DNA of 64,000 nucleotides, taken from Patescibacteria group bacterium (GTDB taxonomy: Bacteria > Patescibacteriota > Minisyncoccia > Phycocordibacterales > Zambryskibacteraceae). Position numbers and translations under genes: made by a program. Location of the stretch: positions 29,836 to 93,835 of the forward strand of contig SCSN01000009.1 in the NCBI GenBank assembly GCA_004322205.1, given 5' to 3'. Shown here one piece after another: positions 2,681 to 34,995 of this stretch; position 1 is the first letter of the stretch; the number at the start of each line of letters is the position of its first letter. A model generated the notes under the pieces. That model worked only from the letters and a program-made list of their open reading frames with translations. It had not been told where the DNA came from and made no database searches.

Positions 2681-3763
2681 ATGCATATGGCGAAGGACTA
2701 CTACAAAGTTTTAGGAGTGTCAAAGGATGCTTCCAAGGAGGAAATCAAGAAAGCATTCCGCAAGCTTGCTCATGAATATCACCCCGACAAGCGAAGCGGC
2801 GACGCCGCTAAATTTAAAGAAGTTAGCGAAGCGTACAGTATACTCTCCGACGACCAGAAGCGCTCCCAGTACGACGCCTACGGCAGGGTTTTTGCCGGAG
2901 GTCAGACAGGAGGCGGTTTTGAGGGTTTTCAGGGCTTTGACTTCTCCCAGTTTGGCGGGGACAAAGGTTTTGAATTTGACCTCGGTGATATTTTCGGGGA
3001 TTTTTTCAGCTCTACTTTTGGCGGCAGAGGCGAGCGAACGCGGCGCGGCAGGGACATTTCCATTGACACCGAGCTTTCGTTTGAAGAGGCGGTGTTTGGA
3101 GTGGAACGCGTGATTGTACTCAATAAAGTTTCAACCTGCAGCGTCTGCGCCGGTAGCGGCGCGCGGCCCGGAAGCAGTATGGAGACCTGCCAAACCTGCA
3201 ACGGCAAGGGCACAGTTCGCGAGGTTCGCCGCTCTATTATCGGTTCGATTTCTACGGTTCACACCTGCGAGACCTGCGGCGGCAGAGGCAAGGTGCCGCG
3301 TGAACGCTGCGACAGCTGCCGCGGCAAAGGAGTAATCAGACGCGAACATGAGATCAAGGTGAAAGTTCCTGCCGGAGTAGAAGATGGAGAAATGATTCGC
3401 CTCGGGGGGATGGGGGAGTCGGTGGCAGGCGGCGTTGCCGGCGACCTTTACATTAAAATCCATGTCCGCAACCACTCTTATCTGCGGCGTGAGGGAAATA
3501 ATCTAATGATGGATCTTTCGGTGAAGCTAAGCGACGCCCTGCTTGGGGCGGAATACCCGGTTCAAGCGCTTGACGGTAAAATTACCGTCAAAATTCCCGA
3601 GGGTGTGGCGCCTGGGGAGATTTTGCGCGTGCGCGGCAAGGGCGTGCCGACGCAGAGCGGTAAACGCGGCGACCTGCTTATCAAGCTCATTATCAATCTT
3701 CCGAAAAAACTTTCAAAGGAGGCTAAAAAGCAAATTGAGCAGCTCAGAAAAGAAGGGGTATAG
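2681..3763 (+). CDS. dnaJ: DnaJ co-chaperone
   Basis: J domain (DYYKVLGV...HPDK), G/F-rich linker, four CxxCxGxG zinc-finger repeats. Confidence 0.95.
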
Positions 3764-3844
3764 ATATCCGTTACAAAGCAAAGGTGTTTGAAACGATGTC
3801 TTGTTTAGCTTCGTTTTGAACATATCTTTCTGATAAAACTTAAT

Positions 3845-4441
3845 ATGGCAGATTTACGCTCTATTTTGGGTGTGATAGCGGGAGTTATTACCTTTCTAGC
3901 CTTTGTTCCTTATATAATTTCGACCGTAAAAGGCGATACTAAACCCGAAAGAGCCACTTGGTTTATTTGGGCTGTTGTGGGTTTTCTCCTACTCACTAGT
4001 TATCACTATTCAGGCGCTGTCAGCACAATCTGGGCTGCAGTTACTTACTTTATCGGACCACTTATAGTGGCGTTGATTTCAGTTAAGTATGGGGTGGGAG
4101 GCTGGAGCGTTCTCGACAAGGTGTGTTTATCAGGAGCCGCTGTAAGTCTGATACTCTGGTATGTAACAAAGTCAGCCCCCGTTGCTCTTTACATAAATAT
4201 TCTTGTAGATTTTTTAGGTTTGATACCTACTATTGTCAAAACATACAACAACCCATCTAGTGAGAGCAGGCTATCGTGGAGTATGAGTACAATAGGGAAC
4301 TTCGTAAATTTGCTCGCTATAAATCGACTTACGTTATCCATAATTATTTTCCCGGCCTATTTTCTATTGAATACAGGCACAATATTATTGTTAATCTTAT
4401 TTAGAGGGTCAAGGAAATTCAAAAATGTCTACGCAAAATAA
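3845..4441 (+). CDS. hypothetical polytopic membrane protein
   Basis: 198 aa with several hydrophobic helices; no recognisable motif. Confidence 0.4.
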   Translation: MADLRSILGVIAGVITFLAFVPYIISTVKGDTKPERATWFIWAVVGFLLLTSYHYSGAVSTIWAAVTYFIGPLIVALISVKYGVGGWSVLDKVCLSGAAVSLILWYVTKSAPVALYINILVDFLGLIPTIVKTYNNPSSESRLSWSMSTIGNFVNLLAINRLTLSIIIFPAYFLLNTGTILLLILFRGSRKFKNVYAK

Positions 4442-14204: not shown

Positions 14205-15275
14205 ATGATTACTGATGTTGTCAAAATCTTTCTGCCGGCCGTTATCTCATTCTGTCTTGGCATTGCCATCGCCCCCCCTCTCGCCGACTATCTTTACGGG
14301 CGCCGAATGTGGAAAAAGAAATCGGGGAAAGTTGATCTCTCCGGCGCCGCCACACCCATTTTCAACGAACTTCACAAGGACAAAGAAGTGGGAACTCCGC
14401 GCATGGGCGGAGTCATTATTTGGCTCTCATCATTCATTACCATCATCACCATTTGGGTAATTTCATACTTCTTACCGTCAGAGTTCTCTGTCAAGCTGGA
14501 TTTTTTGAGCCGAAAGCAAACTTGGTTGCCACTCGCCACTCTAATTTTCGGTTCACTTATTGGTTTGCTCGATGACTGGCTTGAGATTCGCGGCAGCGGC
14601 AGTCACCTTGCCGGCGGACTTTCACTCAGGAAGAGACTCTTGATTGTCAGTCTGGTCGGCCTTTTCGTCGGCTCGTGGTTTTTCTTTAAGCTTGATGTCT
14701 CCGGCATCGGCTTACCCGGTGGCGGGATCTTCCCGATGGGTCCTTTCTTTATACTTTTTTTTACCGTTGTGACGGTGATGCTCTATTCGGGAGGAGTTAT
14801 TGACGGGCTGGACGGTTTGGCGGGAGGCGTCTTTGCCACTATCTTTTCTGCCTACGCCGGTATCGCTTTTTTTCAACAGCAGATTGATCTTGCCGCCTTC
14901 GCTCTGGTGGTGGTTGGCGGGATACTCGCGTTTTTGTGGTTTAATATTCCTCCAGCGCGCTTTTACATGTCGGAGACCGGCACTATGGGACTCACTATGA
15001 CGCTTGCAGTAGTGGCGTTTATGACCGACAAGCTTGGTGGCGGCTACGGCGTCTTGGTTCTTCCAGTCATTGCCTTGCCGCTTGCCGCGACCACGCTCTC
15101 GGTCGTAATTCAGGTTCTTTCAAAAAGATTTCGAGGCAGGAAAATTTTTTTGGTGGCGCCGCTCCACCATCACTTTGAGGCTCTTGGCTGGCCAGCTTAC
15201 AAGGTGACCATGCGCTATTGGGTTATCGGAGTGGTTTTTGCCATCCTCGGCGTTATTCTTGCCGTCATTGCTTGA
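14205..15275 (+). CDS. mraY: phospho-N-acetylmuramoyl-pentapeptide transferase
   Basis: Multi-TM protein with MraY motifs (GTPRMGG, DDxxD-like LLDDWLEI); start taken at the internal ATG at 14205, the ORF is open from 14160. Confidence 0.9.
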   Translation: MITDVVKIFLPAVISFCLGIAIAPPLADYLYGRRMWKKKSGKVDLSGAATPIFNELHKDKEVGTPRMGGVIIWLSSFITIITIWVISYFLPSEFSVKLDFLSRKQTWLPLATLIFGSLIGLLDDWLEIRGSGSHLAGGLSLRKRLLIVSLVGLFVGSWFFFKLDVSGIGLPGGGIFPMGPFFILFFTVVTVMLYSGGVIDGLDGLAGGVFATIFSAYAGIAFFQQQIDLAAFALVVVGGILAFLWFNIPPARFYMSETGTMGLTMTLAVVAFMTDKLGGGYGVLVLPVIALPLAATTLSVVIQVLSKRFRGRKIFLVAPLHHHFEALGWPAYKVTMRYWVIGVVFAILGVILAVIA

Positions 15276-15277
15276 TA

Positions 15278-16390
15278 ATGAAAAGACTTACCGTTGACAA
15301 ACCGTTTGTTGCATCGGTCCTCATCCTCGTCGTCGCCGGCTTTTTTATTTTTAATTCAGCCTCACTCGGGCTTTTGGCGCAAGGAGGGGAGAAATACAGC
15401 AGTGTTGCTTTCTCACAAACCTTTTTCGGGCTTCTCCTTGGCACTCTAGCTCTGCTTATCACTTCACGCTTCCCGTACAAGAAGTGGAAGAAAGTGGCGT
15501 TTTTCCTTTTCCTAATTTCTATTGTTCTTACTCTCCTTGTCTTTGTGCCCGGACTCGGGTTCGAGCACGGCGGGGCGCGCCGCTGGATTCTTGTCTTCGG
15601 CGTTTCCTTTCAAACCTCCGAGCTTCTCAAATTTGGTTTCATTATCTACTTCGCTGCCTGGGCGTCGTCGGTCAAGGAGCGAATTACAACCTTCAAGTTT
15701 GGCTTAGTGCCGTTTTTACTCATGCTTGGAATAACCGGAGCGATTCTCCTTCTCCAGCCTGATACTGACACTCTTGCCGTCATTTTTGCCGCCGGCTGTG
15801 CCATGTTTCTCGCCGCCGGCGGTCGTTGGCGGCACGTTGTTCTCCTCCTTATAATTGCTGTTCTCGGCTTTGTTGCCATTGCCCAGTATCGTCCCTATCT
15901 CCAAGAGCGTTTGCAGACATTCCTGCATCCGGAGGAGGAGAGTCTCGGAGCAGGATACCAGATTCAGCAGTCACTTATTGCTATTGGCTCCGGCGGATTC
16001 GGGGGGAGGGGATTCGGCCAGAGCATTCAGAAATTTAGCTTCCTACCCGAGCCGATCGGTGATTCGATTTTTGCGGTGGCGGCGGAAGAATTCGGTTTTC
16101 TCGGCAGTCTTGTTCTGATTTTTCTATTTCTCTTTTTCGCTTTCCGCGGTCTTAAGATTGCAAAAAGAACGGAAGATTCATTCGGTAGACTGCTTGTTGT
16201 TGGAATTGTTATACTGATTGTATCCCAAGCTTTTGTCAATATGGGCGCTATGCTTGGGATTTTGCCGCTCACCGGTATCCCGCTTCCTTTTGTCAGTCAC
16301 GGCGGCACTGCTCTTCTCTTTACTCTGGCAGAAGTTGGCGTGGCGTTCAATGTCTCGCGATTTGCCCATAAGTTTTCAATTAAGCGCTAA
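15278..16390 (+). CDS. ftsW: SEDS-family peptidoglycan glycosyltransferase FtsW/RodA
   Basis: Polytopic protein with PEPIGDSIFAV and SHGGT motifs; located between mraY and murG. Confidence 0.85.
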   Translation: MKRLTVDKPFVASVLILVVAGFFIFNSASLGLLAQGGEKYSSVAFSQTFFGLLLGTLALLITSRFPYKKWKKVAFFLFLISIVLTLLVFVPGLGFEHGGARRWILVFGVSFQTSELLKFGFIIYFAAWASSVKERITTFKFGLVPFLLMLGITGAILLLQPDTDTLAVIFAAGCAMFLAAGGRWRHVVLLLIIAVLGFVAIAQYRPYLQERLQTFLHPEEESLGAGYQIQQSLIAIGSGGFGGRGFGQSIQKFSFLPEPIGDSIFAVAAEEFGFLGSLVLIFLFLFFAFRGLKIAKRTEDSFGRLLVVGIVILIVSQAFVNMGAMLGILPLTGIPLPFVSHGGTALLFTLAEVGVAFNVSRFAHKFSIKR

Positions 16391-16416
16391 GTGGCAAGTA
16401 ATTAATTTCTAACGGG

Positions 16417-21448: not shown

Positions 21449-21488
21449 GCCTTTATGTCATAAGTTGGTCGTTTGTTATTCATCTTTC

Positions 21489-21518
21489 ATTATAGTGAAC
21501 CACAGTTCACCCAACAAG
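21489..21518 (-). promoter_or_regulatory. lexA promoter with Cheo-type SOS box in the spacer
   Basis: Minus strand reads TTGTTG (-35) then 17 nt containing GTGAACTGTGGTTCAC then TATAAT (-10), about 35 nt upstream of the lexA ATG. Confidence 0.55.
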
Positions 21519-21536
21519 AGTTAGCTGTGGATAAAT

Positions 21537-21572
21537 AAAATACCTCGCCAGCAAGCTGGCGAGGTATTTTAT
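21537..21572 (-). terminator. intrinsic terminator-like hairpin
   Basis: AAAATACCTCGCCAGC-aagc-TGGCGAGGTATTTT, followed on the minus strand by TTTTATTTAT. Confidence 0.45.
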
Positions 21573-21693
21573 CTTTGAGAACCGACGGTTCTCAACGCTC
21601 GCCTCGCTCGCTGCTCTCCTCCGCGGGGAACCGGACGCGGTTCCCCGACCCCCCCACTCTTTACACATTCCTCCCCAGAGGAGGGCTCCGGGG

Positions 21694-21743
21694 TATCCTG
21701 TGCAAAAAATGAAAAAGAAAAGGACTCGACGCCAGTCGAGTCC
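21694..21743 (-). terminator. intrinsic terminator of the upstream 98-aa gene
   Basis: GGACTCGAC-tggc-GTCGAGTCC followed on the minus strand by TTTTCTTTTTCATTTTTT. Confidence 0.5.
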
Positions 21744-21788
21744 CGTCACCTCACTACTTCAGGTGTTTTTCACCAACTCCGTTGGCCC

Positions 21789-22085
21789 CTAGCCAATCAT
21801 TCTGTCAAGCTCTGAATTACCGAGCGGGCTTTTCACAGGCTCCATCAGACGCCGCGCCAGTTCAATGCTTTGTCCAGCCACGTCTAGCGAGAACTGCGCG
21901 CGAGAGTCAACTTTCACTATCCTACCCTTCTTGAGAAGAGGACTAAGTCTCATGACTTTACTCGCCTGTTCAATCACCGCGAAGCCGCCACTCTTCAGAA
22001 AAATGACAGCGCGATCTTCTGGAGGGAAGAAGAAAGCGCGATGAGTGAGATGGAGATGGACCTGCCCCTCAATCACCCTAAGCAT
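21789..22085 (-). CDS. hypothetical protein
   Basis: 98-aa ORF with its own terminator; no recognisable motif. Confidence 0.35.
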   Translation of the reverse strand: MLRVIEGQVHLHLTHRAFFFPPEDRAVIFLKSGGFAVIEQASKVMRLSPLLKKGRIVKVDSRAQFSLDVAGQSIELARRLMEPVKSPLGNSELDRMIG

Positions 22086-22289
22086 ATAACCTCCATGGCT
22101 TTATTGTGCAAGTTTGCAGGGGTGCTCCACAATTAGATTACAACAAATTTTTAAAAAATCAAATGCAACTTTCTTTTAGTCCATTTTCTTATGTCCCTTA
22201 TTCGAGCGAATAAGGGACATAAGGAAGAATTAAAAAATTGTACGCTAGTCCAATCAGTTTTCTTTTCAGAGCCATAATTTTGTATTAAG

Positions 22290-22958
22290 ATGACCTATAT
22301 GAAGAAAAACGTTTGGCTGATTGGTTTTGCAGTAATTTTGATAGGTGCCTTTGGAGCGATGCTGGCGGCGCGCAAAAACGTCAATATCCCCTCCCCCACG
22401 AGCACGGCGGCGCCGGAAGCCCAGTTTGCGATTACTGCCGAAGACCACATTAAGGGCGCGCAGTTTGCAAAAGTCACCATCATCGAGTTCAGCGATTTTC
22501 AATGTCCTGCCTGCCGTGCCTATTATCCCCTCTTAAACGAAGTTCTCAAAAACTATCCCAATAATGATGTAAGAGTGATCTATAAACACTTTCCTCTGGT
22601 AAACACCCATATTGGTGCAGAGCCGGCGGCTCGCGCCTCGGAGGCCGCGGCCCTGCAGGGTAAGTTTTGGGAGATGCATGATCTAATTTTTGACAAGCAA
22701 GAGAGCTGGGCAACAAGGCCGACAAGGGGCGCCTTTGAAGATCTTGCTCGAGAGCTTAATTTAGATATCAACGCTTTCAGACGCGACTATGATTTACCTG
22801 CGCTGAAAAACCACGTTCAGAGAGATCTCAAGGAAGGTATTGATTTAGGGGTAAATTCCACCCCAACCTTTTACCTCAACGGCAGAAAAATAGAAAACCC
22901 GCGGAGCTTGGAGGATTTCAAGGCGCTTATTGACACTGCTCTTGCGAACCCTTTATGA
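22290..22958 (+). CDS. DsbA-family thiol:disulfide oxidoreductase
   Basis: N-terminal TM anchor; thioredoxin fold with FSDFQCPACRAY CxxC active site. Confidence 0.8.
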   Translation: MTYMKKNVWLIGFAVILIGAFGAMLAARKNVNIPSPTSTAAPEAQFAITAEDHIKGAQFAKVTIIEFSDFQCPACRAYYPLLNEVLKNYPNNDVRVIYKHFPLVNTHIGAEPAARASEAAALQGKFWEMHDLIFDKQESWATRPTRGAFEDLARELNLDINAFRRDYDLPALKNHVQRDLKEGIDLGVNSTPTFYLNGRKIENPRSLEDFKALIDTALANPL

Positions 22959-23383
22959 CGCCCAGAGCGCTTGTCATCACTTTTATCGTTGTTGCTTTTT
23001 TAGGATTCCTTGATGCCGCGTATCTTACGGCAAATTACTTTTTAGGCACTGCCCCGGCCTGCTTTATCGCACAAGGCTGTGATGTGGTTACTACAAGCGT
23101 TTATTCGCGCGTTTTAGACGTGCCGGTGGCCCTCCTCGGCTCTCTCTACTATCTGGCAATGTTTTTTGCCGGCCTTTACCTCCTGGAGTCCAAAAACGCT
23201 CGTTTTGCCCGTTTCCTCCCCTACTTCACTGCAACCGGCTTATTGGTCTCAATTTGGCTGATATACGCTCAAATTGCCCTTATAAAAGCCCTCTGTGTCT
23301 ATTGCCTTCTCTCTGCTCTAACCTCTACAGCACTTTTCATTCTATCTTTCCCGATTTCTAAGAAGCTTGAGTTGCAGGTGTGA
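22955..23383 (+). CDS. vitamin K epoxide reductase (VKOR) family protein
   Basis: Four to five TM helices, loop Cys pair (CFIAQGC) and CVYC active site; 4-nt overlap with the dsbA-like gene. Confidence 0.7.
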   Translation: MTPRALVITFIVVAFLGFLDAAYLTANYFLGTAPACFIAQGCDVVTTSVYSRVLDVPVALLGSLYYLAMFFAGLYLLESKNARFARFLPYFTATGLLVSIWLIYAQIALIKALCVYCLLSALTSTALFILSFPISKKLELQV

Positions 23384-23385
23384 AG

Positions 23386-23856
23386 TTACCTTGCATTTCC
23401 CCATACATTCCCATTGTTATCGTAGGTGTAGGGAGCATTGTAGATTTTGGTGACGGCATGAGGATTGGTGTAGCCGGCATCAGTATAGGTGTAATTCCCT
23501 TTGTCGCTCTTCCTTGTGATGTTCCCTATGGCATTGTATGTAATGTCATGTCTGAAGTTAGAGCCGTAGATTGCAACAGTTGAGGAAGCGATGATGAGCC
23601 TATTCAGATCATCGTAATACAAGTCCAGCGTCTTTTTGGAGTTTGTCCCCGATTGATCCACGATCTTTGTTATATTCCCCACCGCATCATATGTATAGGT
23701 GATGTCTTGCAACACATCAGAGGAAGAGGCGTTGACGTAGTTTATTTCCAAATACGGGTCAGACGATGTACCCGCTTGTTCGGAGCTGTACATGTGTATA
23801 CCGTGGAAAACAGTTGGAGTGGAGCTGGCGATGTCATGGTCGGCTTCTTCTGTCAC
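23386..23856 (-). pseudogene. orphan internal RHS/YD-repeat fragment
   Basis: 156-aa ORF about 90% identical to an internal segment (ADHDIASSTP...YTYDNNGN) of the giant RHS gene about 5 kb away; lacks both core ends. Confidence 0.75.
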
Positions 23857-24356
23857 AGCTTGATTTTATCAGGATTTTCGTATTTTTTTATCAAGATTAG
23901 AGTTTGCTCATCCAGTTCGATATTTGGATTGAGTTCTTTGAGGTGTTTAACAATTTTAGCACCAGTCTCTTCCGTAAATGATTCATTTGGTAGTTCGAGA
24001 TATTTCATTTTTCCATCTGAATCACTTATGATGTATAGTGATTTGTAAACGTCCCCAAAGCTTTTATCTAGGTTAAAAGTAGGCTGTCTTGAGATCCGTT
24101 TAATATGCTCTATATTAATACATTTCTTAATTACGAAGCAGTCAACCTTGCAGGCCGATTTATTGCCAACTGATAAATATATACCAGAAAAAGCGTTCAA
24201 AATTAATAAGAGACAAGCTAGAGCAAGACCAATTACGGTTGAGTTATAAAAGTTTCTCCCTGAAAGGAAAAAGGCTAATAGAAAACCACTCCCTAAGAGC
24301 ACTGCGATTGAGCCAGCCCATTTTTTACTTGTTCTGTATTTTATCTCCTTCATCAA
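23853..24356 (-). CDS. candidate RHS immunity protein (paralog of 25327..25800)
   Basis: 167 aa; N-terminal TM helix and C-terminal VKHLKELNPNIELDE motif shared with the second immunity ORF; 4-nt overlap with the upstream orphan CT module. Confidence 0.5.
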   Translation of the reverse strand: MMKEIKYRTSKKWAGSIAVLLGSGFLLAFFLSGRNFYNSTVIGLALACLLLILNAFSGIYLSVGNKSACKVDCFVIKKCINIEHIKRISRQPTFNLDKSFGDVYKSLYIISDSDGKMKYLELPNESFTEETGAKIVKHLKELNPNIELDEQTLILIKKYENPDKIKL

Positions 24357-25219
24357 TTTCCACCAAACGCATTCCTAAATCTAATCAATTTCTGCTGTTG
24401 TCGATAGGCTGCCTGTTGTATTGCGGTAATATATTGTTGGAGCGACATACCTGAACCTCCCGAACCACCTCTTAGAGATTGCAGTGCACCCCGTGCTATA
24501 AAACCAGTACCGGCTCTGAAGACACCCTGTACTGTGGTGTATTGAATCTGCCTCGTCCATAAATCTGAACTTATTCCTTCTGGTTTTTTTAACAGGACAC
24601 CCTTAACAGGAGCTTGACCTACTCCAAACTTGAAAAGACCTCGCGCAACCATTGAGTTTGCAGCAGACACAGACGCTTTTTCAAAGTCTAGCGGTTCCTT
24701 GCCGGCAAGATCTTGAACGAGTGATCCTACACCAGAGGATAAGCCAGATGAAACAATCGATGTTCCAAAAAATCTCCCTCCTCCAGCCGCGAAGAGTTGA
24801 GCCACTATATACTCGCCCGGAGAGGAGCTAGGTAAATACTGATCAATACCACTAACATTATTCGTTCTATTCTCCATAATATCCACCGCCCACTTTGCAA
24901 GGGAAGCGACACCTGCACCGATTATCGGTACAGCATACGGCATCAAGGGACACAACACGACAAAACACAACCCTTGTGGATCCTTGTACACATAAGGGCT
25001 ATTGTTGGCATAGCTGTAGCTGTTTAAGACTTGTGGATCAGAAAGTAATTTCTTTAGGTCTTGGTTTGAGAGTTTTGTGGCTTCAGGTGAGCCCAACCAT
25101 ACGAATATAGGATCTTGTGAGGCAAACCTCCCAATACGGCCGTCATAGTAGCGTGCATTGAGACATGAGAGAGCTGTATCATCATCGTATTCCTGTCCAA
25201 TGTATTTTATGAGTAGCTT
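24353..25219 (-). pseudogene. orphan RHS C-terminal toxin cassette (5'-truncated, no start codon)
   Basis: Reading frame open from 25219 (stop at 25220..25222); begins inside the last RHS repeat (YIGQEYDDDTALS...YYDGRIGRFASQDP), has the DPQGL boundary, then a Cys-rich hydrophobic CT domain. Confidence 0.65.
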
Positions 25220-25326
25220 TCAGCTTTTAGCTGTTAGGAAATACGAATAACGAATCAGGAATTATGAGTTAGGAAGGACAAGGCGCGGAGGCTTTTTTAA
25301 AGAACAAGCTCGACCTTTGGTCCTAG

Positions 25327-25800
25327 CTAGATTTTAGCAGAACTTTCGTACTTCTGTATTAGATTCTCTGCATTTTCGTCTAATTCTATTTTCGGATTGA
25401 GTTCTTTGAGGTGCTTTACTACTTTGACAATAGTCTTTTGTGTGAACCCAATATTCGGCATCTCAATATATTTACTTTTATGATCAATCTCACTAGCAAC
25501 ATAAAGTGATCTTGCACTTCTTCCAATGATAAAGGTTGGTGTGTATGATATTTTCTGAATTGAATTGATTTCCAAACATCTTTTTAGAATAAAACTATCA
25601 GTACGGCAAATGGTTCTATCGCTGATATGCACATAGGTACCAAGGAAATTATCAAGTGCGATAAATATTAATAAAACAAAAACAAGTAGTATAATTGGCT
25701 CAATTCCTTCTGAAATTTGTCTTAATATAGCCGGAAAAATGCCGATTAGTAGTAGGACAGCTATCATCCCAGCCCAGGCTTTATCAGTTCTGTATCTCAT
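25327..25800 (-). CDS. candidate RHS immunity protein
   Basis: 157 aa; TM N-terminus and VKHLKELNPKIELDE motif; start overlaps the stop of orphan CT-1. Confidence 0.5.
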   Translation of the reverse strand: MRYRTDKAWAGMIAVLLLIGIFPAILRQISEGIEPIILLVFVLLIFIALDNFLGTYVHISDRTICRTDSFILKRCLEINSIQKISYTPTFIIGRSARSLYVASEIDHKSKYIEMPNIGFTQKTIVKVVKHLKELNPKIELDENAENLIQKYESSAKI

Positions 25801-26906
25801 GGCTTCTTTGAGTTAAAACTAGCAATGAGACTCCTCAGGGCTGATATGAATTGATTCATATTAAACGGCCTCCCATTTACCTGTCCTGAACCTTGAGCTG
25901 CCGGCCTACTTGAACCGCCAGAGGAGCGTCGTAATTCCTGGGCCCCCATACCCGGAAGTGTTTGCAGGGCCTCTTGCCCAACCGCATATCTAGCACCTTT
26001 ATCCAGAAGTGATGATGATGTTTTCTTGAATAAATTTGGCAATCCTTCTTCTGCCAATTCATCAAATGGTGATTGTCCAGCTGCAGATTTGAAGAGTTTT
26101 CCACCTATCCCCGCAGAAACTCCGGTTAGTACAGCTTTAATTGGATCAATAGGTCTTCCCCCAGCATAATCTTGAATTACCGAGCCTGCGGCCGCTATTA
26201 CTCCCGAGGTCACAGCTTTTGTTCCAATTTGCACTGCGGATGCAGCACCGAAACTTACACTGGTTACGTATTCAGAAAACGAAGACCTTGGCGCAAACTG
26301 TTGCCAACCCACAACACTCGCAGCTTGATTTTCCCTAATATCAGAATACCAAGTACTGTAAAACGCTACTGTCCCCCCTATTAAAGCCAGGATACAAGCA
26401 GGGCACAAGCCATTCGGATCTTTGTTAACAATAGGGTTATTATCCGCATATGCATAGCTATTCAATGTCTGTGGATTTGAGAGAAAGAATGATTGATCCT
26501 GTCCGGTTAATTTCTTTAATCCCTGAGAATATCCAATCGCCAAGAAACTCGGATCCTGACTCACAAACCTCCCAATACGTCCATCATAGTATCTGGCATT
26601 GAGGTATGAGAGTGCGGTTTCAGTGTCATACTCCTGCCCTATGTATTTCCTTGATTCATTGTATGTTGTTTGTTTCTGATCTGTTCGGAGTTCACCGAAG
26701 GGGAAGTAGTCAATGAGTTCACTCACTGTGCTACTTGCGTCTGTAATTACCGTTGAACCTTGAAGGTGGTCAGTGTGCACGTAGTATGTACTCGTTCCTG
26801 TATTTGTTCCTCGTACTGAAGCTAGGAGGGTATTGTTAGCGTAAACGTGGTGGTCTCTCGTACTAGAATAATTAGTCATAAATAGTGCCTGACCCCATAA
26901 TCCCAT
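25797..26906 (-). CDS. orphan RHS C-terminal module (last YD repeats + DPNGL + CT domain)
   Basis: N-terminal about 150 aa are roughly 85-90% identical to the 3' core of the giant RHS gene (YYVHTDHLQGSTVITDASST...YYDGRIGRF); then DPNGL followed by the divergent CT CPACILALIGG... Confidence 0.7.
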   Translation of the reverse strand: MGLWGQALFMTNYSSTRDHHVYANNTLLASVRGTNTGTSTYYVHTDHLQGSTVITDASSTVSELIDYFPFGELRTDQKQTTYNESRKYIGQEYDTETALSYLNARYYDGRIGRFVSQDPSFLAIGYSQGLKKLTGQDQSFFLSNPQTLNSYAYADNNPIVNKDPNGLCPACILALIGGTVAFYSTWYSDIRENQAASVVGWQQFAPRSSFSEYVTSVSFGAASAVQIGTKAVTSGVIAAAGSVIQDYAGGRPIDPIKAVLTGVSAGIGGKLFKSAAGQSPFDELAEEGLPNLFKKTSSSLLDKGARYAVGQEALQTLPGMGAQELRRSSGGSSRPAAQGSGQVNGRPFNMNQFISALRSLIASFNSKKP

Positions 26907-26966: not shown

Positions 26967-27410
26967 TCAAACACTTTGAATATCGGGGTTAGCATCTATG
27001 AGAGATTTGGGTGCACGATAATAATACCAGTTTTTTTCTCGCGTTAAATTATGTTTTTGTTCGTGCGCCAACCCACAAATATTTTCTTTTATTTTTATGG
27101 TTTTTTCTTCGAAGAGTGAATCTGGTAAAACAAGTTTTTTTTCAACTTCTTTTTGTTCTTCTGAACTTAATTCGGTAAGAACAATGTCAATCGCACTTCT
27201 AACATCAAGATTGTTAGTATACTCATATATATCATCTTCCATTTCTACATCTTCCGTTATTTTTTCCCATCTGGGAATTAAATAGTTTAAGCCGTCCTTA
27301 ACTATAAAGTCGGCGTAACCTTCTAATCTTTTTTTTATTTTTTCTGTATGCGGGTAGGGCATAATTTGTATCTGACTTATAACTGGTTTTGAATTAATTG
27401 CTTCTCCCAA
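26967..27410 (-). CDS. candidate cognate immunity protein of the main RHS toxin
   Basis: 147-aa acidic ORF whose start overlaps the RHS stop by 17 nt (27394..27410). Confidence 0.45.
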   Translation of the reverse strand: MGEAINSKPVISQIQIMPYPHTEKIKKRLEGYADFIVKDGLNYLIPRWEKITEDVEMEDDIYEYTNNLDVRSAIDIVLTELSSEEQKEVEKKLVLPDSLFEEKTIKIKENICGLAHEQKHNLTREKNWYYYRAPKSLIDANPDIQSV

Positions 27411-30400
27411 ATCGCCGAGAAAACCTTGCGGCTGCTTGTTGCAACCTAATAACTTGCGCCTGTAACGAAGACACGTCAGAAGCAGAGAGACTTAATCCGT
27501 TGCTCCAACCAGAATATGAAGCTCCACTTGAAGGTTTGAAGTATGTATGCATTGTGACACCCCCAGTATTTTGATTCATGCTGAAAGACGCGAAGGAATT
27601 TGTTCTCGTGTCATAAGTGTTAATTCTTCCTCTGGTTTTATCAAACCTAAGTGGATACTTACCACTAATAGCATCTGTAACAAACTCACGAGCTGATTCT
27701 ACATACTCTTTTGTATTTGTTGTTCCAAAGTCAGCAGCATGATCTGCCGCGTGTTTTGTAGCATTTGCAGCGCGATTCGCCATAGATCCTTTGCTCCAAA
27801 CGCCTTCAAAATTAATATTTGGCTTCGGCGAATTTGGCACTGGTCTAGCACCGACGGTTGCGAGTGGCGCAGCATCAAAGTAAATCTGTGGTTGACTAGC
27901 CGCTGCATATGCTTCTGGTTCGTACACAGGATCTGGAGATAGGGGACGAGGCATAAACAGTAACATTCCAATAATCCCCCATGGTGTAGGTGGAACTTCT
28001 AATCCCTGTGGATCCTTGTTTACAATTGGGTTATTATTTGCATAAGCATAACTATTCATTTGCTGGGGATTGGAGAGAAATATTTCTAAGTTTTGAGTGC
28101 TTAATCGTTCAAGGAGCGAAGAACCAATTTCTAAAAACACCGGATCCTGACTGGCAAACCTCCCAATACGACCGTCATAGTATCTGACATTGAGGTAAGA
28201 CAATGCGGTCTCTGTATCATACTCCTGCCCTATGTATTTCCTTGATTCATTGTACGTTGTTTGCTTCTGGTCTGTTCGGAGTTCTCCAAAGGGAAAGTAG
28301 TCAATGAGCTCATTTAGAGTTGATGAGGCGTCGGTAATAACTGTAGAGCCTTGGAGGTGGTCGGTGTGAACGTAATAAGTGGAGGTGCTTGTCGTACTGG
28401 ATCGAATGGAAGCCAGTAACATTCCGTTGCTGTAAATATGCTTGTCTCGTGTAGTGGTGGCTGATACGTCATAGTACATGTTGGGGTAGTAGGTGGCGGT
28501 AGTTCCCACCTGATACTTGACTCTAGCTCCAGCATGATCGTAGGCCATCTGCATCGTACTCGTCGCCTTCGTTATCTTTGTAATCCAATTGTTGTAATTC
28601 CAAGTACTTGTCGCTATCCCCCCTATCCCCAGCATATTCCCATTGTTGTCGTAGGTATAGGGAGCGTTCCAGACTTTGGTAACAGCCTGGGGGTTAATGT
28701 AGCCAGAATCAGTGTAGGTGTAATTCCCTTTGTCGCTCTTCCTCGTAATGTTCCCTATGGCATTGTACATCACATCATGTCTGAAATTGCTCCCGTAGAT
28801 GGCAACAGAGCTTGAAGCAATCACCAATCTATTCAAGTCATCATAGTAGAGATCCAGTGTCTTTTTCGAATTTGTGCCTGATTGATCCACAATTTTGGTT
28901 ATATTCCCCACCGCATCGTAGGTGTAAGTGATGTCTTGCAACACATCAGAGGAAGAGGCGTTGACGTAGTTTATTTCCAAATACGGGTCAGACGATGTAC
29001 CCGCTTGTTCAGAGCTGTACATGTGGATGCCGTGGAAGCCGGGTGGAGTGGAGCTGGCGATGTCATGGTCGGCTTCACGGATGGCGATGAGGGTGGTGGA
29101 GGTGGGAGAAATCCAGCTTGTTCCGGTGGCATTGAGGTACCATTTGTTGTAGCCAATGAGAAAGTCAGCGCTGTTTTTTCTTGTTGCTCCCTCATCGGGG
29201 TTATTGATAGTCATTCTGGAATAATCGGAATTTTGTAGGAGTGTGGTAGAGGCTTGGTTGCTTTTAACAATTGCCATATTACCTCCATCTTGCTTGGCGT
29301 AGACATAGATATTAAGAGATGCAGATGTAACAGTAGCGTTTGAGCCAAGAGAGGAAGTGTCAAAAACGTAGAACTGACGAGAATTACCAAGATAATAGCC
29401 AAAATCAGTATATGCTCTGGCCGTCCCTTGATATGAATCCCCTCCATAGTAATTGGCAGATGTTGTAGCTCGAATATATGACCAAGGGCGACATGCACAA
29501 GCATCGCCGCCATATGCGGAATCGTCGATAAATGCCAAGCCGCCGTCTCCAGAGCCTGAATATGGGCTAAGGGTGAGATCGGTGCGGACCGGAAAGACTG
29601 TCGTTTTGAAGTAAGAGGCCGGGAGAATCTTGGTAACTTGAATGTTTGTACCTATTTTCTCGTAACGAATTGAGATGGGCCGTAAATGCGCTCGATTGGC
29701 GTCAGAATCATCTATGTACGGGGCGCGAATATACGAAACTCCTCCGCGGTCATCAATGATTTTTGCAGGATTGGCGGAAACAATTGTTCCGGCTTGGCTT
29801 AATCTTTTACCTTCTACCTCAATGTCCAAATCGCCTGAACTGGTGATTTCAAATAGTATTTCGTAGTCAGTGCCCGTGGCGAAGGTTTGGAGCGTCTGAC
29901 TATTTGCAATCACAAACTCTTTGGTAAGTGATACATCACCAAGCGACACTACCATGTCGGCGCCGGACCCCAGATAATTTTTATATGTAACTCTCTTCCC
30001 TGCCCACATGGGATCGGTCAATTCCTTTTGGACCGTAGCCGATGAAGTTGCCGCCTGCGGGAATGTAAGTGAGAGTATTTGACCACCGTTTTCAAAAGTG
30101 ATGGGAGAGTTTGTCGGCGATTTATCAAGTGTCGCTTTATACGGAGCCTTGTACATAAGCCAATTGTTTTGGCCGTCAATGAGGATAGTGTCTATCTCCG
30201 AAAGATTTCCTGCGCTGTCCCGATAGAAGATGTCGCCGGAGTAAAACTGCCCTTGGCGGATTTCATTGCCTTGGGGGTCAAAACCTATGAGGTAAGTCTT
30301 GCTTCTGGAAGTTCGCAGGTCATCTTTTTCAAACGGTTGATTGAGTATATAGTTCCCGTTTTCATCCACGACAGACTGCTCCGCCCGCAGATAGTCCTCC

Positions 30401-33400
30401 ATACTTGCATAACCCATAAATCCCTCTCCGCCAGTTCCGCCCACTTTAGTTGTGATTTTTTTCTGAAGGCGATAGAGTTCATCGGGGTTGTAGACGAAGT
30501 AGCTCTCCGTATTGTTGGCGTAGTAAATATATGAAGGTTGGCCAGTCGGAGCATAGTCAATGTCTGAAACCACATCCGTAAAGCCGCCGCCGGCAGTTTC
30601 TTTCTTCTCAACTTTCTCAACCTGTCCGCCGTTGTTGTACGTGTAGCGAGACTCAAAGAGGTCGGGATAGACGATGTTTACGATATTTCCCTGCCTGTCG
30701 TAGGCGTAGGTAGTTGTTAGATTATTGGAATTTATCTTTTTCAGTTCTGTTACCACACGGCCGAGGGGATCATAGGTATAGACTGTATTTGCTCCAGTGC
30801 TTGTGGCCGCACAGAGTTGCCCCTTGCCGTTGGTACAGCCGTCGTAGCTGTACGTTACCTCTACTCCGGTCAGTCCTGTGAAGTCTTCCGTCAGAACTCT
30901 GTTAATTCCGTCGTACGTAAAATTAACTTTCTGGTTTTTCTGATCATAGCGCTGGACAAGATTACCTGCGTTGTCGTAGACATAAGTTGTTGAAGCAAAC
31001 GTGGAGTCAGCGGATGCGTGGAGATCCTCTGCTTTTGTACGCCTGCCGAGGCCGTCGTAGGTGAAGTTGCGGACGTTTCCGAGCGCGTCGGTGATTTTCG
31101 TCAGATTTCCGAGCCCATTATAGAGATAGTTGGTCGTGTAGGTGGACGTCGCGTTAATCTCATCTACCTTTGTGAGGTTGTCATACGCGTCTTTGTATAG
31201 CTTCTTTTGCTTGCTGCGGGCATCGGTAACAGTCAGCACCCAATCGTCATAGGCGTTAGTAGTACTCCCCACTGCATTTGTAATCTTTGTCACTCTTTCC
31301 AGCGGGTCATAGGTATAACTGATCTCGAGCTTCGAGGCGGTTGAGGTGGAAGAGCGGCTCGAGCCTTGGGCAAAGTACGGCAGAGTTTCTTTATCAAGAA
31401 GGCCGATGTTGTTGTAAGTATATTCCTTTACAACAAATTCGCTCGTATTCTCCGCCTCTTTTCTCTCTTGGAGAATGCGGTTGAAGCCATCAAGGTATGA
31501 GTAGGTATCTACGATGTTGGAACTATCCAGGTAGTCACTTCTTTTTACAACTGTCGGAACCGTATTGTCCGTATAAGTGAAGGTTGTTTTTGTCTCAAGG
31601 GTGGAAGAGGTTGAAGTGCTTGGCTGTTTTTCTTCTGTCACACGATCGAGGCCGTCATAGGTTGTTTGGAAAACGAAATTATTGGGATCAGTAAATTGTT
31701 TTACCTTGCCAGAGGAGTAGTCATATTGGTATCCAAAGTTTTGGCTTACTGCGTTTGTTGTTGTTGCCGGGTAAAGATTGTTCGCATCATATACGTAGGT
31801 AGTGTTGTTCCCCCTTGGGTCAGTATCGGTAGTGACTAAGCCGTAGCTATTGTATGCCTTTGTGGATGAGGCGTAAGCCGAGCCAGTTTTCCAGAGTTCC
31901 TGCTTGGTAAGATTTCCTTTATCGACATTGCCGTAAGAGAGGGTGTCGTAATAGAGCTTTGTTTCTTTGACTTTATTTGAGCTCTGGTCAAACATTCCCT
32001 CTTGGGACAGGAGATTCACTGAAACGGAGCTGGTGGCGGAGCTTGTGGCGTAGGTGTAGTTAAAGGTGAACTTGTCTGTGCCCGCATCTGTAAATGTCCC
32101 GTCATCGCTTGCAGTTACTTCACCCCAGAGAGTCTTTTGAGAGAGATTGCCGGCGCTGTCGTCATAGACATAGCTTTCGGCCTTGTGTTTGGAATCAGCA
32201 TCACCGTCCTGCGCCCAGTCAATAGTCTGCGTAAGCTTTACATAGTGGCGATCGTTCGCTAACCCGACATTCTCCCACTTGTTAATCTTTTTAGAGTAGA
32301 TGTTGTTCGACGCGTCAGTGATTTCAGTCCTATAGGTTTTACCGATTTTCGAGACGTGATCACTAAATTCGCCGAGAGATGAATCTGTGGTGTTTCCTTG
32401 GTGGTAATATGTTTTAACTTTGGTTCCAGCATCGTTACTCCTCGTGGTACTGGCAAATCCAGCTAGACGTCTGTCACGGCCAGTGTTGAAATAGAATCGC
32501 CCATCGGAATAGGTGTAGCTAACTGCTTCAGTATTGTTGACTCCGTTGCTCTTGGTGATTTGGGAAACTGTGTCAAGAATAATCGGAAGCTTGGGATTAA
32601 GAAGGTTTCCTCCGGATGCTGTATACAGCGGAGTTTGTTTGTAGGTAATATCGTGAGTGGCTCCTTTATCTGTAACAATTTTTATTAGTTGATCCGTTCG
32701 CGAAGGATTGGCGAGACGAATAGTATTTTGCGTTGAGTTGGCACTCCAGTATATCGACTGCAAGATATCGGGTATGGCATCCCCGTCAACATCGGCCATG
32801 CGCACCCCCTCGTCTTGATCAAAACCATTTGCAAAGTCTACGGGCGGGTCCCAAGAAGGATCGGTTATCTCTACCCACTGTTTCCCGGTATTTTTAGAAG
32901 TGCCGCGGAGGGTAAGCGGCGGATTACCGTTATAGACGTAGGAGGAAATCATATCCGTCAAGTTGTCGCCGTTGACATCGGCATAACGCACTCTCATGGA
33001 AACCGATGCGGTGTAGCCAGTCTGGCTTTTCCAGCCATTGCCTGTATTCATGTGAGTTGTAGTGGAAGTGAGAAAATCATAAAGCCCGTCTGCATTGACA
33101 TCCAAAAGCTGAATATCATCGGTTATCCCATCCGTGGCAAAGGACATGGGGTTTTTCCAGCTGGCTGATTCCGTCCAACCGGCGCCGTTATTCATATATA
33201 TTTTGTTGAATTGCTGGGTGCTGGTCGCATGAGAATAGAGAATATCTACGAGGCCATCGCCGTTTACATCACCTAAACGAACCCCATTGTCTTTCTCGGC
33301 GGCAATAAAGTATTCCGGCGGCTGCCACGTTGAACTTTCAGACCAACCAGAGCCAGTGTTTAAATATGTTTTCTTTGTAGTCGAACCACTGCCTGCATCA

Positions 33401-34995
33401 ATTGCCCAGAGAACATCGATGAGAAGATCCCCGTTTACGTCTGCAAGTCTCACGCCATCGTCTTTCCCATCTTTCACAAAGTGCACTGGGAATTGCCAGC
33501 TTGAATCGTAACTCCAAGTGAGGTTGCCTCTATTATTGAGATAAATTTTTTGAGTAGAGGATGCAGAACCTTCGAGCTCTGACCAAATGAAATCGGCGAG
33601 CGCGTCCCCATTTACGTCTGCCATACGCAAACCTTTGTCGGTGCGCGAGGTTCCGTCCTTGATAAACCACATCGGAATGGTGCCGGAGGCGGCAGGATTC
33701 GGATCCCACCCATTAGCAGTCAAGGTATTTCCATAAGTAAAGGAGGTCTGCGGAAGAGTGATTTCCGTCCCCAAATCATCCTTGCCAGTTTCCACAATGC
33801 CTCCCAGCAGTTTTCTTTCTCCGTTTTCAGCCAAGGCAGAATTGAAGGTGTATTTTCTAACCCAAGAACCGTTAACTTTGGCTTGCACTTCGTTTATGAA
33901 ATACTTGGTAACAACTTCAAAGGCGGGCCGGCTTGAGGTGGCGTAGCCGGCAGCGCCGCGATTCTGGCGGAAGAATTCAAGCTCGAAGATACCGTCTGTT
34001 ACTCCGTTGCCGGTGTATTTGATTTTTGAGGGGTAAATGTATCCTGCTCCTTTGTAATACTCGTATTTTATGTAGTTATCATTTCTGTCTCGCACTTCCT
34101 CAAGCATCCAGCGATAGATCTTCGTTCCATCAGATGGATCATCCATTCTTGTGCTAGTGGAGTAGCCGAATTTGTATTGTGTCCCGCTTTTGTCTGTTAC
34201 AAGCCACGTATTACTAGAAAAGGTATATGCCCTGAACGCCCCATTTTCGTACTTCGCTCCGTAAGCCGTAGTTGTAGTAGAGGTTGTGGCAAGTTCCCCG
34301 TCAAAGGAAGAGGTAAAATAAGTTGAAGAATATAGATTGTCGGAGCCGGTGCGATTGAGACGCTCAATGTACGGAATATCCAAGTTCCAGCCGTAGCCGA
34401 ACCAGTTTACGTCGTCTGCCGTTTGATTGTTGTAGTAGAGGGTGGCGCTTGGAGTCAGACCGTTTCTGCCGGGCGACACAGTCAGTTTGTATTGATAATT
34501 GAACGAACCTGCATAGGAATCCAGTGTGAAAGCGATTCGCAGTTCTTCGTCTTTGCTCCGATCCCTAATCGGCAAATCAGAAGACTCGCCGAGAAGCGAC
34601 AAGATACCAGCTTCCCCTTCTCCAGCGGGCTCTTCATCTGTTTTCTGCTGGGGCGCTCCGTTCTGGTTTGTCTGCTCGCCCGCGACCTCGCCGGGCGGAG
34701 TACTGGGGTTGCCTGCGGCTTGCCCCGCCGATTCATTTTGATTTGCTTCTGTCGGCTTGTTCCCCGATATCCCGGGAGTAACAGAAAATTCAACATCAGC
34801 CGGACTCTCAACAGGGATATTTTGAAGAGCACCGCCGACATTCGGAGTATTCGGCTCTTGGTTCAGAGTCGCCGTCTCTTCCTGCGCGGAAACAAAGAGC
34901 GGCTGGAGGAAAAAAGAAAATACTAACGTCAAAGACGTTAGTATTTTCAAGCACTGCCGCACCTTGAGAAAATCAAAAGTACGCCTCGCCCTCAT
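27394..34995 (-). CDS. giant secreted RHS/Tc-toxin BC-like polymorphic toxin
   Basis: 2533 aa; signal peptide; Pro/Gln/Gly-rich linker; SpvB-like GYGWNLDIPYIERL segment; six or more DVNGD(G)xxD FG-GAP/VCBS-like repeats; tens of YD repeats; PIVNKDPQGLE core boundary; then an about 200-aa unique C-terminal domain. Confidence 0.9.
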   Translation of the reverse strand: MRARRTFDFLKVRQCLKILTSLTLVFSFFLQPLFVSAQEETATLNQEPNTPNVGGALQNIPVESPADVEFSVTPGISGNKPTEANQNESAGQAAGNPSTPPGEVAGEQTNQNGAPQQKTDEEPAGEGEAGILSLLGESSDLPIRDRSKDEELRIAFTLDSYAGSFNYQYKLTVSPGRNGLTPSATLYYNNQTADDVNWFGYGWNLDIPYIERLNRTGSDNLYSSTYFTSSFDGELATTSTTTTAYGAKYENGAFRAYTFSSNTWLVTDKSGTQYKFGYSTSTRMDDPSDGTKIYRWMLEEVRDRNDNYIKYEYYKGAGYIYPSKIKYTGNGVTDGIFELEFFRQNRGAAGYATSSRPAFEVVTKYFINEVQAKVNGSWVRKYTFNSALAENGERKLLGGIVETGKDDLGTEITLPQTSFTYGNTLTANGWDPNPAASGTIPMWFIKDGTSRTDKGLRMADVNGDALADFIWSELEGSASSTQKIYLNNRGNLTWSYDSSWQFPVHFVKDGKDDGVRLADVNGDLLIDVLWAIDAGSGSTTKKTYLNTGSGWSESSTWQPPEYFIAAEKDNGVRLGDVNGDGLVDILYSHATSTQQFNKIYMNNGAGWTESASWKNPMSFATDGITDDIQLLDVNADGLYDFLTSTTTHMNTGNGWKSQTGYTASVSMRVRYADVNGDNLTDMISSYVYNGNPPLTLRGTSKNTGKQWVEITDPSWDPPVDFANGFDQDEGVRMADVDGDAIPDILQSIYWSANSTQNTIRLANPSRTDQLIKIVTDKGATHDITYKQTPLYTASGGNLLNPKLPIILDTVSQITKSNGVNNTEAVSYTYSDGRFYFNTGRDRRLAGFASTTRSNDAGTKVKTYYHQGNTTDSSLGEFSDHVSKIGKTYRTEITDASNNIYSKKINKWENVGLANDRHYVKLTQTIDWAQDGDADSKHKAESYVYDDSAGNLSQKTLWGEVTASDDGTFTDAGTDKFTFNYTYATSSATSSVSVNLLSQEGMFDQSSNKVKETKLYYDTLSYGNVDKGNLTKQELWKTGSAYASSTKAYNSYGLVTTDTDPRGNNTTYVYDANNLYPATTTNAVSQNFGYQYDYSSGKVKQFTDPNNFVFQTTYDGLDRVTEEKQPSTSTSSTLETKTTFTYTDNTVPTVVKRSDYLDSSNIVDTYSYLDGFNRILQERKEAENTSEFVVKEYTYNNIGLLDKETLPYFAQGSSRSSTSTASKLEISYTYDPLERVTKITNAVGSTTNAYDDWVLTVTDARSKQKKLYKDAYDNLTKVDEINATSTYTTNYLYNGLGNLTKITDALGNVRNFTYDGLGRRTKAEDLHASADSTFASTTYVYDNAGNLVQRYDQKNQKVNFTYDGINRVLTEDFTGLTGVEVTYSYDGCTNGKGQLCAATSTGANTVYTYDPLGRVVTELKKINSNNLTTTYAYDRQGNIVNIVYPDLFESRYTYNNGGQVEKVEKKETAGGGFTDVVSDIDYAPTGQPSYIYYANNTESYFVYNPDELYRLQKKITTKVGGTGGEGFMGYASMEDYLRAEQSVVDENGNYILNQPFEKDDLRTSRSKTYLIGFDPQGNEIRQGQFYSGDIFYRDSAGNLSEIDTILIDGQNNWLMYKAPYKATLDKSPTNSPITFENGGQILSLTFPQAATSSATVQKELTDPMWAGKRVTYKNYLGSGADMVVSLGDVSLTKEFVIANSQTLQTFATGTDYEILFEITSSGDLDIEVEGKRLSQAGTIVSANPAKIIDDRGGVSYIRAPYIDDSDANRAHLRPISIRYEKIGTNIQVTKILPASYFKTTVFPVRTDLTLSPYSGSGDGGLAFIDDSAYGGDACACRPWSYIRATTSANYYGGDSYQGTARAYTDFGYYLGNSRQFYVFDTSSLGSNATVTSASLNIYVYAKQDGGNMAIVKSNQASTTLLQNSDYSRMTINNPDEGATRKNSADFLIGYNKWYLNATGTSWISPTSTTLIAIREADHDIASSTPPGFHGIHMYSSEQAGTSSDPYLEINYVNASSSDVLQDITYTYDAVGNITKIVDQSGTNSKKTLDLYYDDLNRLVIASSSVAIYGSNFRHDVMYNAIGNITRKSDKGNYTYTDSGYINPQAVTKVWNAPYTYDNNGNMLGIGGIATSTWNYNNWITKITKATSTMQMAYDHAGARVKYQVGTTATYYPNMYYDVSATTTRDKHIYSNGMLLASIRSSTTSTSTYYVHTDHLQGSTVITDASSTLNELIDYFPFGELRTDQKQTTYNESRKYIGQEYDTETALSYLNVRYYDGRIGRFASQDPVFLEIGSSLLERLSTQNLEIFLSNPQQMNSYAYANNNPIVNKDPQGLEVPPTPWGIIGMLLFMPRPLSPDPVYEPEAYAAASQPQIYFDAAPLATVGARPVPNSPKPNINFEGVWSKGSMANRAANATKHAADHAADFGTTNTKEYVESAREFVTDAISGKYPLRFDKTRGRINTYDTRTNSFASFSMNQNTGGVTMHTYFKPSSGASYSGWSNGLSLSASDVSSLQAQVIRLQQAAARFSRRFGRSN

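Follow-up and report, generated by a model that had tools for sequence, protein, structure and literature searches.

Which toxins do the displaced tips of an RHS locus encode, and how does their bearer protect itself from them? The question is raised by a locus of a Patescibacteria group bacterium (assembly GCA_004322205.1, contig SCSN01000009.1, positions 29,836 to 93,835), a stretch of 64,000 nucleotides (nt) that is called the window here. Downstream of a full-length RHS gene, the window carries two orphan modules, each made of an RHS-core remnant, a C-terminal toxin tip (CT) and, directly downstream, a putative immunity gene. We are highly confident that an RHS polymorphic-toxin locus ends in this region, with two displaced orphan modules followed by a bare core remnant, and that the tips and the immunity proteins each form a family. 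An RHS gene with orphan tip/immunity modules is a familiar layout, and it accounts for the locus. The cargo is new: a helical tip family of ~200 aa, and an immunity family with two transmembrane (TM) helices and a PH-like domain (2TM-PH), both absent from Pfam, NCBIfam, PHROGs and PDB. Taken as a whole, the locus is probably best explained as an RHS orphan array in which a membrane-acting tip is met by membrane immunity. The fuller proposal, a new membrane-acting RHS toxin family neutralised by membrane-anchored bacterial PH-domain proteins, is tentative, and we place it somewhat below an even chance.

Orphan modules of the RHS locus

The RHS array lies wholly on the minus strand, where the main RHS open reading frame (ORF) is followed by six downstream features in order (ORF list). 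The main gene and the two orphan modules are listed below, with the evidence in brackets.

27394..34995, minus strand: main RHS toxin gene, 2533 aa (ORF and Pfam domains)
25797..26906, minus strand: orphan-1, whole ORF of 369 aa with an ATG start (ORF; protein annotated by NCBI)
26406..26906, minus strand: RHS-core remnant of orphan-1, aa 1-167, ending in DPNGL (homology to main RHS)
25797..26405, minus strand: CT1, tip of orphan-1, 202 aa plus stop (sequence, family, model)
25327..25800, minus strand: imm1, 157 aa, two predicted TM helices and a PH-like domain (ORF, AlphaFold)
24968..25219, minus strand: RHS-core remnant of orphan-2, 84 aa, from KYIGQEYD to DPQGL (open frame, homology)
24353..24967, minus strand: CT2, tip of orphan-2, 204 aa plus stop, paralog of CT1 (blastp)
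23853..24356, minus strand: imm2, paralog of imm1, 166 aa from ATG 24353 or 167 aa from TTG 24356 (ORF)

The main RHS protein matched Pfam RHS_repeat (4.7e-28), SpvB (2.3e-12) and FG-GAP_3 (2.6e-10). Its N-terminus has a signal-peptide-like segment, and its C-terminal side comprises the RHS-associated core, the boundary motif DPQGL and the tip. NCBIfam TIGR03696 (Rhs_assc_core) was found in the main protein (1.1e-16), orphan-1 (4e-18) and orphan-2 (1.7e-13). The boundary reads DPNGL in orphan-1 and DPQGL in orphan-2, and the RYYDxxxGRFxSQDP motif upstream of it is kept in both. The orphan coordinates, the RHS core and the DPxGL boundary in the initial annotation of this DNA agree with these matches.

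The ATG of imm1 overlaps the stop of orphan-1 (ATGA), and the start of imm2 overlaps that of orphan-2 (TGATG). A tip with an immunity homolog as the next gene downstream was found eight times: twice in the window, twice in locus L001, and once each in L004, L005, L008 and L010. Among these eight are the full-length RHS proteins P0006 and P0014, each with an immunity homolog directly downstream. A further immunity homolog, P0004, was detected by word-index search on L001, where the two tip/immunity pairs stand in tandem. Neutralisation of the tip by the product of the downstream gene is predicted from this position, the start/stop overlap and the pairing in eight loci.

RHS/YD loci with orphan modules have been described for the Rhs proteins of E. 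coli, Salmonella and Serratia and for WapA of the monoderm B. subtilis. They share with the window a full-length RHS gene, the RHS-associated core, DPxGL, and a variable tip with its immunity gene directly downstream. Their downstream core fragments likewise carry a different tip/immunity pair, and the modules have a lower GC content. The window differs in its host, which is a Patescibacteria metagenome-assembled genome (MAG), and in its RHS protein, which has a signal peptide and SpvB/FG-GAP instead of PAAR/VgrG-linked parts of type VI secretion (T6SS). Its orphans are also unusually diverged from the main core. In the literature searched, RHS repeats were scarcely mentioned together with the Candidate Phyla Radiation.

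Tip family

The two tips are paralogous. Compared alone, CT1 and CT2 showed 37% identity over 115 aa (blastp, E=5e-15), and they fell into one family in the profile search, which bears out the earlier view that they are related yet distinct. Word-index searches for homologs of the tip either recovered nothing beyond the sequences of the window or were overwhelmed by low-complexity words. An exhaustive HMMER scan of 1.84 billion representative proteins with a CT1+CT2 profile detected 34 relatives at E<=1e-3, including 15 at E<=1e-10. In all of these relatives the match is C-terminal and follows NPxxxxDPxG. Full-length RHS proteins of SpvB/FG-GAP/YD-shell architecture carry the tip in P0006 (3062 aa), P0008 (1925 aa) and P0014 (2402 aa). 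The two tips are thus neither unrelated to each other nor confined to fragments detached from a full RHS core. The CT2 sequence recurs in an independent assembly (L006/P0001).

An alignment of 32 sequences was used for the AlphaFold model of the tip and for the family scans. The model is all-alpha with eight helices (pLDDT 71, pTM 0.56). A Foldseek search of PDB with this fold gave nothing below E=1.4, and the tip profile had no meaningful match among PDB sequences. Pfam, NCBIfam and PHROGs scans of all 32 sequences revealed no recurring family.

Each tip has 2 Cys in ~200 residues, so the term 'Cys-rich' of the initial annotation does not fit them. The conserved feature is a pair of Cys that immediately follows the cleavage motif. 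The first Cys comes right after DPxG-x and the second at most 12 residues further on in 19 of 27 family members (CT1 26391..26405 and CT2 24950..24967 in the window; relatives P0006-P0036), and ten members have CPxC, a redox-like motif, at the tip start. DsbA and VKOR genes flank the window array (22290..23383), and a DsbA gene also adjoins the RHS gene of P0008.

Immunity proteins

The two downstream ORFs were also called paralogs in the initial annotation, and imm1 and imm2 proved 42% identical over 161 aa (blastp, E=2.5e-42), with VKHLKELNP(K/N)IELDE common to both. A single N-terminal TM helix had been expected; hydropathy (Kyte-Doolittle, KD) windows and AlphaFold both gave two. All eight immunity homologs have two 17-residue KD windows of 2.05-3.44. 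The AlphaFold model of imm1, built from only three sequences (pLDDT 74), has helices at 9-28 and 34-52, six strands, a capping helix and a final helix. When it was searched against PDB with Foldseek, the top 38 matches were PH, PTB or other PH-like folds with a probability near 1 (best E=5.6e-3). The membrane location that had been assigned to these proteins is supported by the two predicted hydrophobic helices in all eight homologs and by the model. The loop has less Lys and Arg than the N-tail and the stretch after TM2, a distribution that suggests an N-in/C-in topology.

Pfam bPH models did not match the six immunity homologs scanned, nor one further homolog, even at E<=1. A 136-aa protein of locus L009, obtained in the metagenome scan, is a Pfam bPH_4 protein (1.6e-25), and the immunity profile aligned with it at 96.3% in hhalign (E=1.8e-9, 129 columns). 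From these comparisons and the modelled fold, the immunity proteins are read as a divergent branch of membrane-anchored bacterial PH proteins, remotely related to bPH_4 (PF06713). The bPH_4/DUF1200, YdbS-type bPH_2 and DdE proteins have the same two N-terminal TM helices and helix-capped PH-like beta-sandwich. The window proteins differ from them by an extra C-terminal helix with the LNPxIELDE...KKYE motif. The loci of three leaderless bacteriocins, namely enterocin DD14, aureocin A53 and lacticin Q, encode bacterial PH proteins of this two-TM kind (YdbS/DdE; PMC8657885). In the literature searched, the bPH_4, YdbS and DdE families were not described as RHS immunity proteins. If the PH protein does neutralise the tip, toxin immunity would be the first concrete function of a bPH_4/DUF1200-like protein.

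Mode of action of the tip

What the tip attacks was judged from its composition, its conserved positions and the nature of its immunity protein. Attack on the membrane is plausible from these sequence features, and we rate the chances of a membrane mechanism as about even. On the family average, the N-terminal ~20 residues and helices 43-109 are hydrophobic with a low hydrophobic moment. The fraction of Gly, Ala and Ser is 0.38 in CT1 and 0.34 in CT2, and looser small-xxx-small patterns were frequent in the family members checked.

The closest known parallel is Tse5-CT, an Rhs tip of Pseudomonas aeruginosa. It inserts in membranes, where it forms pores selective for ions, and it depolarises cells; two TM regions are predicted in Tsi5, its immunity protein (PMC9637101). 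Tse5-CT and Tsi5 resemble the window pairs in that an Rhs tip is released at DPxGL and is matched with a small immunity protein with two predicted TM helices (PMC9637101, PMC10684867). Both tips are predicted to be helical with hydrophobic stretches and lack an enzymatic signature. The window tip is longer (~200 aa versus ~150 aa), the window immunity protein has the additional PH-like domain, and Tse5 is delivered by T6SS into diderm cells. The PDB profile and Foldseek searches gave no match to Tse5-CT; an ordered Tse5-CT chain in the PDB copy was unconfirmed, and no direct comparison was made.

A second parallel is offered by the glycine-zipper toxins EsxX and TspA of monoderm bacteria, with the immunity proteins ExiCD and TsaI (PMC12744356). 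EsxX is a depolarising toxin whose membrane immunity proteins are kept as orphans (PMC12744356). The small-residue-rich tip, the membrane immunity and the orphans are common to these systems and the window. EsxX and TspA differ in being LXG substrates of type VII secretion (T7SS) and not RHS proteins, and their defining GxxxGxxxG is absent from the window tips. ExiCD are polytopic membrane proteins and not of the 2TM-PH type.

By analogy with Tse5-CT, the following course may be proposed. After cleavage at DPxGL, the tip would travel enclosed in the RHS shell and, once released, act at the cytoplasmic membrane of the target, most likely by insertion of helices that leads to ion leakage or depolarisation. 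The immunity protein would intercept the tip in or at the membrane.

Several observations weigh against such membrane action. No similarity of the tip to known pore formers was detected in the PDB profile and Foldseek searches or in Pfam. The initial annotation regarded the tips as hydrophobic, which holds for the N-terminus and helices 43-109 on the family average and is otherwise true only in moderation: no 19-residue KD window scores above 1.43 in CT1 or 1.96 in CT2, these peaks lie at the N-terminus only, and only the N-terminus of CT2 passes the classical TM threshold. CT1, CT2 and ten other members were checked for GxxxGxxxG, and none has it within a hydrophobic helix; the lone match, in one of these ten, is GASMGGGGG in a poly-Gly C-terminal linker. 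The positive-inside rule suggests that the PH domain of the immunity protein is cytoplasmic, which is not an obvious meeting place for an incoming toxin. Moreover, polar positions are conserved in the family (D22, N26-R27, Y46, S75, Q78-D79 at 91%, K106, R139-Y140) and are mixed with Gly and small residues, a pattern that would also suit an enzyme.

The main rival explanation is built on these last two points. The tip may be an enzyme and no pore former, active either at the membrane interface or on a substrate that is lipid-linked or cytoplasmic (a Lipocone- or colicin-M-like head-group hydrolase, for example), and may be bound and blocked by the PH domain of the immunity protein. The spread of the conserved polar residues over several helices, the merely moderate hydrophobicity and the predicted cytoplasmic side of the immunity domain are all consistent with it. 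Polymorphic toxin systems are also known to hold helical lipid-head-group toxins with membrane-bound immunity proteins (PMC12419801). However, no conserved His was found in the tip, so the His/Glu/Asp triad inferred for the Lipocone toxins is absent. Among the 32 members there was no Pfam match to an enzyme or a Lipocone-related family, nor did the tip have a PDB fold match, and its content of about one third Gly, Ala and Ser is more typical of helix-packing membrane peptides. We consider the enzyme possible but unlikely.

Three described toxin groups were examined for membership and, on sequence signatures and model matches, rejected. Tox-WTIP, the sole pore-forming tip in the catalogue of Zhang et al. 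2012, has two TM helices with the signatures RxxR and W[ST]IP (PMC3482391), which are not among the conserved positions of the tip family. Lipocone tips form a four-helix cone with a conserved His (H2), Glu (H3) and Asp (H4) (PMC12419801); the family has no conserved His, and no member matches VanZ, SAA, Wnt or DUF models at E<=1. The glycine-zipper toxins (EsxX, TspA, Tse4) were set aside on the GxxxGxxxG result given above.

If the tip does attack membranes, it would be a second RHS pore-type toxin beside Tse5 and unrelated to it. One branch of the bacterial PH domains, which are poorly understood, would then gain a role. Interbacterial weaponry would also be documented in Patescibacteria, a group in which interactions between cells are difficult to study. 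Membrane-acting tips combined with PH immunity would give a handle on antagonism in these ultra-small bacteria.

Divergence of the orphan modules and recombination with the main gene

Can the orphan tips still be brought into use? Two further features are needed here.

25220..25326, minus strand: unique spacer between imm1 and orphan-2, 107 bp (ends in the in-frame TGA 25220..25222)
23386..23856, minus strand: third RHS-core remnant, 156 aa (homology to main RHS aa 1973-2123)

The core of orphan-1 showed 75% aa identity to main aa 2180-2343 over 165 aa (blastp, E=1e-76). At the nucleotide level, 26416..26789 aligned with main 28010..28380 over 374 bp at 77.8%, with a longest exact match of 38 bp (blastn). 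The core of orphan-2 showed 61% aa identity to main aa 2253-2341 (blastp), and its segment 25110..25207 aligned with 28142..28239 over 98 bp at 75.5%, with a longest exact match of 18 bp (blastn). The stretch 23386..23856 is a third core remnant, not listed in the initial annotation, since it aligns with main residues 1973-2123 at 91% over 151 aa (blastp); it matched Pfam RHS_repeat at 2.6e-5 and has neither a tip nor an immunity gene. Its segment 23398..23847 showed 84.7% nt identity to main 28626..29076, with a longest exact match of 83 bp (blastn), and the two form a direct repeat. Recombination at this repeat would delete the whole tip/immunity array.

Two results speak against the orphans as a working reserve of tips. 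What homology the orphans have to the main gene is old, as judged from 77.8% and 75.5% nt identity and exact matches of 38 and 18 bp, and this makes reactivation of the orphans doubtful. No recombinant arrangement was found; CT2 occurs in just one other assembly, L006, where the order is that of the window.

The frame of orphan-2 is open from 25219 and closed on its 5' side by TGA 25220..25222. There is no start codon at the 5' end, as had been noted in the initial annotation. In-frame starts lie inside it, namely a TTG at 25096 and an ATG that is taken by gene callers (196-aa product, P0001), so the claim that expression of orphan-2 requires recombination goes too far. In spirit it stands, given the lack of a signal peptide and of an RHS shell.

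These findings bear on a second alternative, in which the orphan tips are decaying relics and selection keeps the immunity genes as an 'immunity island' against the toxins of neighbours. The short and diverged homology to the main gene (374 bp at 78%, 98 bp at 75.5%, 38 and 18 bp exact) argues for it, as do the loss of the 5' part and start in orphan-2 and the loss of the whole tip in the third remnant. The immunity genes are intact, with starts overlapping the upstream stops, and toxin-less orphan immunity genes are documented for ExiCD (PMC12744356). On the other hand, the frames of CT1 and CT2 are both intact over ~200 codons and keep the best-conserved positions of the family, including G53, D79 and G110, and DPxGL and RYYDxxxGRFxSQDP are preserved in both orphans. 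We consider decay of the tips possible, though less likely than not.

In the RHS orphan array that we prefer, the orphans would not be secretable as they stand, and reactivation would come only by rare recombination with the main core. Transcription of the main operon probably extends through the orphan immunity genes, which may protect against neighbours with these tips. Tip switching by recombination is likely rare, and the keeping of the immunity genes may be what counts. The locus carries a caution: orphan modules can diverge too far from the main gene to be a ready toxin reservoir.

A third alternative is that orphan-1 is made as a stand-alone cytoplasmic protein and constitutes, with imm1, an internal toxin-antitoxin or addiction module. 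It would be in keeping with the 369-aa ATG ORF annotated by NCBI and with the overlap of the imm1 start and the orphan-1 stop, which permits coupled translation. No promoter- or terminator-like site above shuffled expectation was found within the array, the 107-bp spacer included, and no clear Shine-Dalgarno sequence was found upstream of orphan-1. The product would be a truncated RHS core without a known independent function, and in other loci full-length secreted RHS proteins bear this tip. We regard an addiction module as very improbable.

Spread of the cassette

The GC content of the immunity genes imm0 (that of the main tip, described below), imm1 and imm2 is 0.32-0.35, that of the tips about 0.45-0.47 and that of the window 0.477. 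Immunity genes so far below the window are typical of imported modules and point to a horizontal origin. No match to the immunity patterns came up in a scan of GTDB species genomes; the metagenome scan added L008 and the bPH_4 protein of L009 only.

In L001, a Y1 (IS200-type) transposase gene (3710..4381) comes after the tip/immunity array, and in L005 (1..5933) the full-length RHS gene adjoins TrwB-like, HTH_36 and DUF3768 genes. These neighbours are a hint of carriage on mobile elements. In L010 (10001..11746, 14788..16414), the module is an isolated RHS fragment with a GC content of 0.50 in a flank of 0.63. Genes for phasin, ArsP, two-component and guanylate-cyclase proteins lie on the contig, and close by is another RHS fragment, whose tip is different. 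Judged by this gene content and GC difference only, the cassette seems to move beyond Patescibacteria, apparently by exchange with high-GC bacteria that look non-Patescibacterial.

Surrounding genes, main tip and tip tails

In the NCBI record, imm2 is EPN83_02195 (P0002); the MAG is labelled 'Patescibacteria group bacterium', with tags EPN83_02195 and EPN83_02205. The main RHS gene is surrounded by housekeeping genes (GltX-like, M23 peptidase, S24/LexA-like, DsbA, VKOR, exonuclease, L9 and S41 peptidase), and no recombinase was found among the neighbouring genes by ORFs and family matches. The third remnant borders on the VKOR gene, which is convergent with it, at that gene's 3' end. An 840-nt stretch at 21449..22289 is without a convincing ORF, has a GC skew of -0.23 and holds long hairpins at 21531..21576 and 22164..22242; no Rfam family matched it at gathering score.

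The main gene has a tip and a presumed immunity gene of its own.

27397..27999, minus strand: tip of the main RHS gene, 201 aa (sequence after DPQGL)
26967..27410, minus strand: imm0, presumed immunity gene of the main tip, 147-aa ORF (ORF)

Blastp showed no similarity of imm0 to imm1 or imm2. The imm0 protein, with a likely start at ATG 27362 (131 aa), is soluble and acidic without a hydrophobic window, and its gene has a GC content of 0.324. Neither it nor the main tip matched a Pfam or NCBIfam family, and the 201-aa tip and 131-aa imm0 look like a second uncharacterised toxin/immunity pair.

Apart from a short C-terminal tail, the orphan tips have no significant similarity to the main tip. 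The tails of the main tip (27394..27500) and CT2 (24353..24470) both consist of a Gly/Ser linker and an amphipathic helix, SLQxxIxxIQQAAxR. Their alignment score of 46 was reached by 0 of 5000 shuffles, and there was no nucleotide similarity. A tail shared by otherwise unrelated tips may be a separate targeting or packaging module. A third, different tip in L010 (16080..16179) has the same kind of tail, and at least three alternative tail types occur among the members of the tip family.

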